A stretch of 635 nt of DNA, taken from assembly GCF_003334255.1 (NCBI RefSeq), contig NZ_QOWU01000206.1; one strand, written 5' to 3'. Position 1 is the stretch's first letter; each line of letters opens with the position of its first letter. The DNA comes from Escherichia coli. GTDB lineage: Bacteria; Pseudomonadota; Gammaproteobacteria; Enterobacterales; Enterobacteriaceae. Made by a program: the position numbers and the translations under genes. The notes under the pieces were generated by a model. That model was not told the origin of the DNA, made no database searches, and saw only the letters and a program-made list of their open reading frames with translations. Positions 1 to 635 of the stretch are shown piece after piece.

Positions 1-635
1 GTTCTGGCATCGAAGTCTATGGCTTTCCCCAGCTCAACGATTGTGCGTACATCGCGATCGTTGTAGTAACGCCACGGGCAGGGGATCCCCTGCCGTTCGT
101 ATGAACGGCGCAAAATCGTGTTGTCGAAGTTGGCTCCATTTCCCCAAACCTGAACAAAAAATTCACCGGAGTTTTCGTCGATAAATTCTCGCAATTGTAA
201 CAGTGCATCATCTAACGGGATTTCATCGGTCATAATGGCAGATTGCGCTTCGCGTGATTGCTTAAGCCACCATTTAATGGTGTCCCGATCAATGACTCCG
301 CCAGCAGTTTCCAGATCGATAGTCTTACTAAATTCCGGTCCCATATCTCCGGTTTGCGGATCGAAAAATATTGCACCTATTGAGATGATCGGGGCATCAG
401 GATTTTTTCCCATGGTTTCAAGGTCAATCATCAGATGGTGCCACAACCTGCTGGTGGATGTGATAACGTGATGACCGTTCACCGTAATTAAGGGATCTGC
501 CGTCTCGCCAGTTTCACTATCGCTGGCGTGATCCTGAGCGCTGCCAGCATTCTCCTTGTGTGGATGTTCAGCGCCTTCCATTTCCTCCGGATCATCTTCC
601 TGAACTTCAACCTGATACTCTTCATCGAATGTTTC
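1..635 (-). CDS. Partial CDS (5' and 3' ends outside window): acidic low-complexity segment followed by a DnaQ-like DEDD-family 3'-5' exonuclease domain; possibly part of a prophage RecE/exodeoxyribonuclease VIII-like protein (hypothesis)
   Basis: Hand translation of the minus strand in the frame whose codons occupy 635..633 down to 5..3 gives 211 sense codons with no stop. The other two minus frames contain stops (e.g. TAA at 488..490 in the +1 frame). Exo I-like motif MIDLETMG is encoded by 408..431 (D-x-E-T-x-G). Exo II-like motif WGNGANFD is encoded by 123..146 (N-x-x-F-D, cf. RNase T/epsilon H-N-A-x-F-D). The hydrophobic strand [10 protein letters not shown] after Exo I fits the DnaQ fold. 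No good Shine-Dalgarno precedes either in-frame ATG (429..431 and 579..581), consistent with the true start lying beyond 635. Family assignment is from motif recognition only; no search was run. Confidence 0.85.
77..94. repeat. Perfect 18-bp palindrome GGCAGGGGATCCCCTGCC (contains GGATCC and a central GATC) inside the CDS; function unassigned
   Basis: Base-by-base check: positions 77..94 equal their own reverse complement (9 of 9 pairs); symmetry breaks at 76/95. The chance of a 9-pair perfect palindrome somewhere in about 630 positions is roughly 0.002 for random sequence. It encodes R-Q-G-I-P-C-P on the minus strand. No downstream T-tract, so it is not a terminator. Confidence 0.5.

Follow-up and report, generated by a model that had tools for sequence, protein, structure and literature searches.

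The locus and the encoded exonuclease

The window, by which we mean the whole 635-bp stretch of Escherichia coli DNA that was analyzed, covers the 3′ part of a minus-strand gene in a lambdoid prophage. In a six-frame translation, the minus strand was open over all 211 codons in the frame starting at base 635, and the other reading frames were stop-rich throughout. The E. coli 99RCEF chromosome carries the window with 99.7% identity at L001 20001-20635, within a minus-strand coding sequence (CDS 19889-22360) annotated as an exonuclease or 3′-5′ exoribonuclease domain-containing protein. The matches to the window are E. coli temperate phages and lambdoid prophages; phages 204576 and PhiR42_1 match it with 96.5% identity, and 4,713 of the 5,426 complete E. 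coli genomes contain a match to it. An earlier reading of the letters without database searches (hereafter the sequence-only reading) had guessed at phage DNA, which these matches bear out. In 99RCEF, the 3′ neighbors of the CDS are a DUF4224 gene, the integrase gene and the adjoining host gene yccA, and its 5′ neighbors are a DUF1482 gene, dicB and a cI/cro-like immunity region. With DUF4224 and integrase on one side and DUF1482, dicB and the immunity region on the other, the gene is part of a lambdoid early-left operon.

The full protein combines a RecE-like middle region with a C-terminal Rv2179c-like DEDDh 3′-5′ exonuclease domain; the window encodes an acidic linker and then the greater part of this domain (Table 1). 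PF16473 matched the translation of the window with an E value of 3.7e-54 and the full protein with an E value of 5.5e-67 (residues 641-813, model positions 1-177 of 177). PF16473 was thus covered over most of its length, which places the domain in the Rv2179c-like DEDDh exonuclease family. Its relatives in the PDB are weak ones, 8kel and 8ken, both named "Exodeoxyribonuclease." Several phage records name the gene "exodeoxyribonuclease VIII." We rejected an assignment as a RecE/exodeoxyribonuclease VIII equivalog, since the match to the NCBIfam RecE model NF007259 is partial and below the cut-off: it scored 285 bits, the cut-off being 1,269, and spanned only residues 229-626 (profile positions 252-603 of 877). 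The C-terminal part of the NF007259 profile had no match in the prophage protein in the NCBIfam profile search. These matches suggest a domain-swapped architecture, RecE-like in the middle and DEDDh at the C terminus, which most E. coli genomes would contain. The Stx2_14040/PPompW homologue (L006 1688-4155) has a frameshift in its annotation, attributed to a 4-bp deletion, and the vB_EcoM-606R7 homologue is split into two CDSs (L003 2889-4256 and 4412-5332), with a run of N also in the sequence. Judging from the frameshift and the split CDS, the gene appears to be dispensable or decaying in some prophages.

TABLE 1 Coordinates of the gene, protein regions, GATC sites and palindrome in the 635-bp window
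Feature	Position	Strand	Context or evidence	Remarks; state in the aligned sequences
Part of 2,472-bp prophage gene (internal)	1..635	-	Six-frame translation and 99RCEF match	About residues 576-786 of 823
Rv2179c-like DEDDh 3′-5′ exonuclease domain	9..440	-	PF16473; window residues 66-209	6 of the 9 GATC sites inside
Acidic linker rich in Asp and Glu, upstream of the exonuclease domain	441..635	-	Translation	3 GATC sites, via dipeptides DP, DH, DP
GATC	56..59		Asp GAT + Arg CGC (N-D-R-D)	Kept in 7/7 aligned; surrounding stretch near-invariant
Perfect 18-bp palindrome	77..94		GGCAGGGGATCCCCTGCC	Centered on GATC 84..87
GATC	84..87		Gly GGG + Ile ATC	Center of the palindrome; lost in 606R7 (TATC) and Evi (CATC)
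GATC	287..290		Asp GAT + Arg CGG	Lost in JNE160313, Evi
GATC	314..317		Asp GAT + Leu CTG	Lost in JNE160313, Evi
GATC	359..362		Asp GAT + Pro CCG (F-D-P-Q)	Lost in Evi (GACC)
GATC	387..390		Pro CCG + Ile ATC	Lost in mEp460, 606R7, JNE160313, Evi
GATC	494..497		Asp GAT + Pro CCC	Lost in JNE160313
GATC	530..533		Asp GAT + His CAC	Window and 99RCEF only; lost in the other five homologues
GATC	590..593		Asp GAT + Pro CCG	Kept in 7/7 aligned

Nine GATC sites at codon junctions

The window contains nine GATC sites, all of them within 538 bp. The sequence-only reading had listed eight; each of these lies where it was placed, and the site at 359-362 had been overlooked. All nine sites fall at codon junctions, seven of the GAT-C type and two of the G-ATC type (an NNG codon followed by Ile ATC), and 7/9 are in codon phase 0. 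The dipeptides at the GAT-C junctions are DP (three times), DR (twice), DH and DL. Asp accounts for 10.4% of the residues encoded in the window versus 5.0% in 20 flanking host proteins, and Ile accounts for 8.1% versus 5.6%. Seventeen of the 22 Asp codons in the window are GAT. A codon with C as its first base comes after eight of the 22 Asp residues, and GAT is used at seven of these eight junctions. Among the 25 dipeptides in the window that are capable of encoding GATC, 9 do so.

Raw excess of GATC over simple expectations

The excess of GATC is real when measured against simple null models. For random sequence, the sequence-only reading had expected about 2.5 sites, which is correct (632/256 = 2.47 for equiprobable bases and 2.41 with the base frequencies of the window); the count is 3.7 times the equiprobable expectation. 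A first-order Markov model predicted 4.78 sites, and dinucleotide-preserving shuffles contained 4.75 ± 2.06 sites, with 7 of 200 shuffles reaching at least 9. The density in the window was 14.2/kb, compared with 3.3/kb in the remainder of the same gene, 2.9/kb in 22 kb of prophage and 4.4/kb in 18 kb of flanking host DNA, which makes the window 4 to 5 times denser than the DNA around it.

Real as it is, the raw excess is not rare. We drew an empirical distribution from 90 kb of 99RCEF, the E. coli genome with the best match; in these 90 kb, sliding 635-bp windows contained on average 2.29 GATC (variance, 3.63) and 0.39% of the windows reached 9. At this proportion, a 5.1-Mb genome would contain ∼30 such patches. 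Two further 635-bp patches with 9 to 10 GATC were present in the sampled 90 kb, at the matP 3′ end/ompA (L001 5431-6157) and in gntP (L007 2724-3509), which shows that ordinary genes of the chromosome also reach such densities. At the other extreme, GATC is completely absent from two genes of the prophage, one for an ATP-binding replication protein (L001 26115-26855, 741 bp) and one for a DNA methyltransferase (L001 34268-35326, 1,059 bp).

The count is within the range expected from the protein and its codons

A trinucleotide (maximal-order Markov) model, N(GAT) × N(ATC)/N(AT) = 23 × 22/57, predicted 8.9 sites against the 9 observed. When codons were resampled with the amino acid sequence preserved, 7.27 sites were expected with host codon usage [P(≥9) = 0.25], 6.64 with prophage usage [P(≥9) = 0.16] and 6.02 with the gene's own usage [P(≥9) = 0.10]. 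Synonymous permutation inside the window gave 7.24 sites [P(≥9) = 0.22], and a codon-order shuffle gave 5.28 [P(≥9) = 0.058]. The observed count is above the mean of every amino-acid-preserving null, and this residual surplus (9 versus 6 to 7) is within sampling noise. With respect to selection on the GATC word itself, the result was therefore negative, as the count was not above the null that preserves protein and codon usage (6.0 to 7.3 versus 9; P = 0.10 to 0.25). The sequence-only reading had proposed that a codon-preserving shuffle giving a similar count would reveal a composition artifact, and a similar count is what we obtained. The over-representation that it described thus holds against simple nulls and flanking DNA, but is no more than chance once the coding content is preserved.

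Conservation of the sites and of the palindrome

We aligned six homologues with 99.7, 95.9, 93.5, 91.3, 80.9 and 79.2% identity to the window, several of which are closely related and not phylogenetically independent. The GATC counts in the matching stretch fell with divergence (9, 9, 8, 7, 6 and 4). The nine sites of the window were retained in numbers of 9, 8, 7, 6, 4 and 3, and the retention predicted from all 4-mers in the same alignments was 8.9, 7.9, 7.3, 6.6, 4.7 and 4.3. The GATC count of each homologue was within its own amino-acid-preserving expectation, including that of Evi, with 4 sites versus 6.5 expected. Only 2/9 sites (56-59 and 590-593) were invariant, and one of these lies in a stretch that is near-invariant in all homologues. 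Among the six homologues, there was thus no sign of purifying selection on the GATC sites or on their number, retention being equal to the 4-mer background. Weak selection on a few sites would be formally compatible with six partly related homologues, but nothing supports it.

The 3′ 100 to 110 bases (window 1-110; L001 20001-20110) are near-identical across all of the homologues, even in Evi and JNE160313, whose identity elsewhere is only ∼80%, and JNE160313 diverges abruptly just past base ∼20 of the window. The near-identical stretch and the abrupt break look like lambdoid mosaic junctions or recent recombination, and not like site-specific constraint.

One of the G-ATC sites is at the center of a perfect palindrome, the longest in the window, which includes a BamHI site and encodes Q-G-I-P-C. 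The chance of a palindrome this long was ∼0.002 in mononucleotide shuffles and 0.011 under synonymous permutation. It is intact in 99RCEF, mEp460, JNE160313 and Stx2_14040 and broken in 606R7 and Evi. An intrinsic terminator was ruled out because no U-tract follows the palindrome. As a genome scan covers many windows, the palindrome is probably a chance occurrence.

Promoter-like features, helical phasing and the prophage methyltransferase

We found no sigma-70-like promoter site in the window, compared with 1.1 expected in shuffles, and no terminator-like site. A structured RNA was also ruled out, with no Rfam match to the window at an E value of ≤1. All nine GATC sites lie inside the open reading frame (ORF), 1.7 to 2.3 kb from its start, which sets them apart from promoter switches. 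A Dam-regulated promoter was excluded on these grounds, the GATC sites being deep inside the ORF and promoter- and terminator-like sites being absent. The start-to-start spacings of consecutive sites are 28, 203, 27, 45, 28, 107, 36 and 60 bp. The close pairs, separated by 27, 28, 28, 36 and 45 bp, correspond to 2.6, 2.7, 2.7, 3.4 and 4.3 helical turns, respectively, and are thus out of helical phase, which led us to reject SeqA phasing and speaks against a high-affinity sequestration site. We also considered a phage-encoded Dam as the cause of selection for GATC. This candidate was discarded, since the methyltransferase of the prophage matched models of the N6/N4 type alone (PRK11524-like and CcrM-like), with scores far below the cut-offs, and no Dam model was among its NCBIfam results.

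Interpretation of the GATC richness

The GATC richness of the window is very probably a passive by-product of the encoded protein and its composition. On the minus strand, the window encodes an acidic linker followed by a DEDDh exonuclease domain; Asp is twice as frequent there as usual and is mostly spelled GAT, the commoner Asp codon of E. coli. As Asp precedes Pro, His, Arg or Leu codons starting with C in 8 of 22 cases, seven GAT-C junctions are generated, and two NNG-ATC (Ile) junctions supply the remaining two sites. Dam would be expected to methylate these nine sites like any other GATC. The same possibility had been raised by the sequence-only reading, which pointed to GAT-C and G-ATC junctions in an Asp/Ile-rich protein, and it is substantiated here by the 7 GAT-C and 2 G-ATC junctions and by the codon nulls. 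What we observed are the codon contexts, the results of the null models and the absence of conservation; from these we infer that the nine sites are without function. The count, although well above the equiprobable expectation and the flanking DNA, is accounted for by the encoded protein. Since the protein explains the excess, Dam-site counts in coding DNA need codon-aware nulls.

Among the alternatives, we consider it very unlikely that the window is a selected target of Dam and SeqA, whose dense GATC sites, when hemimethylated, would bind SeqA or stay hemimethylated longer after passage of the fork, with a transient effect on transcription passing through the early-left operon's end into xis/int or on the organization of prophage DNA. 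SeqA is known to bind hemimethylated GATC pairs, to prefer sites that share a helical face and to follow GATC density at replication forks (PMC2691817). The local density, about five times that of the prophage (14.2 versus 2.9/kb), and the similar spacing of three neighboring GATC pairs (27 to 28 bp) are in line with such a target. However, 27 to 28 bp amounts to 2.6 to 2.7 turns, which does not put the sites on the same face, the count is not significant when the protein is preserved, and the sites decay as any 4-mer does, down to only 4 in the Evi homologue. Moreover, transient binding of SeqA is expected of any GATC-dense DNA without being a function. We give slightly less credence still to the proposal that the 3′ end of the exonuclease gene, with its dense GATC sites, is under weak selection as a patch sensitive to SeqA and Dam that couples xis/int transcription or local DNA structure to fork passage, with the palindrome perhaps acting as a binding or cruciform element. 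Selected sites would have pointed to an unrecognized input of Dam and SeqA at the excision region in a prophage family that is very common in E. coli, a reading for which the evidence offers no support.

Two further proposals concern the sites inside genes and the repair of phage DNA. In the intragenic GATC clusters of Henaut and Riva, under-methylated, more stable DNA would block transcription elongation upon a cold or oxygen shift. The definition of these clusters calls for pairs separated by <8 bp, triplets within 62 bp and four or more motifs spaced <18 bp apart on average, and the clusters are conserved between E. coli and Salmonella (PMC493266). The window bears a superficial resemblance to them, with GATC concentrated inside a gene and mostly in phase 0. 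Nevertheless, its smallest spacing is 27 bp, its tightest triplet spans 76 bp and its best mean spacing for four motifs is 33.3 bp, and among the homologues the counts fall with divergence and site retention is that of all 4-mers, so that membership in this class is highly improbable. The idea that we regard as nearly negligible is an enrichment for better methyl-directed mismatch repair of phage DNA, through MutH incision, which had been suggested by the sequence-only reading. Nothing specific speaks in its favor. For MutHLS, one GATC no farther than ∼1 kb from a mismatch suffices, and a cluster therefore brings no obvious benefit. In addition, the prophage is otherwise GATC-poor compared with its host (2.9 versus 4.4/kb) and includes the two genes of 741 and 1,059 bp with zero GATC, and the sites are not conserved above background. 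Mismatch-repair targeting is thus left without support, and the other suggestion of the sequence-only reading, Dam-dependent regulation, fares no better: the sites are retained at the background rate, lie >1.7 kb inside the ORF, are out of helical phase and fall outside the cluster definitions above, and no promoter-like sites accompany them.

Comparison with known GATC-rich systems

Dam-dependent promoter switches, such as those of pap, agn43, the IS10 transposase and P1 cre, have Dam-methylated GATC in common with the window. In agn43, the IS10 transposase gene and P1 cre, the GATC sites are in promoters or regulator-binding sites. The pap switch likewise has its GATC in promoter or regulator-binding DNA, whereas those of the window are inside an ORF. 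An above-average local GATC density is also common to the window and to the clusters sequestered by SeqA at oriC and the dnaA promoter. oriC contains 11 GATC in ∼245 bp, most of them separated by about one helical turn. In contrast, the window has its nine sites in 538 bp, out of phase and within a prophage ORF, which is neither an origin nor a promoter. The network of intragenic clusters (Henaut et al. 1996; Riva et al. 2004, PMC493266) resembles the window in that GATC is concentrated in an enterobacterial CDS but differs in that the spacings in the window are 27 to 203 bp and its sites are not conserved. The system that matches the window throughout is the generic and well-known enrichment of motifs driven by codons and amino acids: the window shares all of its features, shows no difference from it, and belongs to this category.
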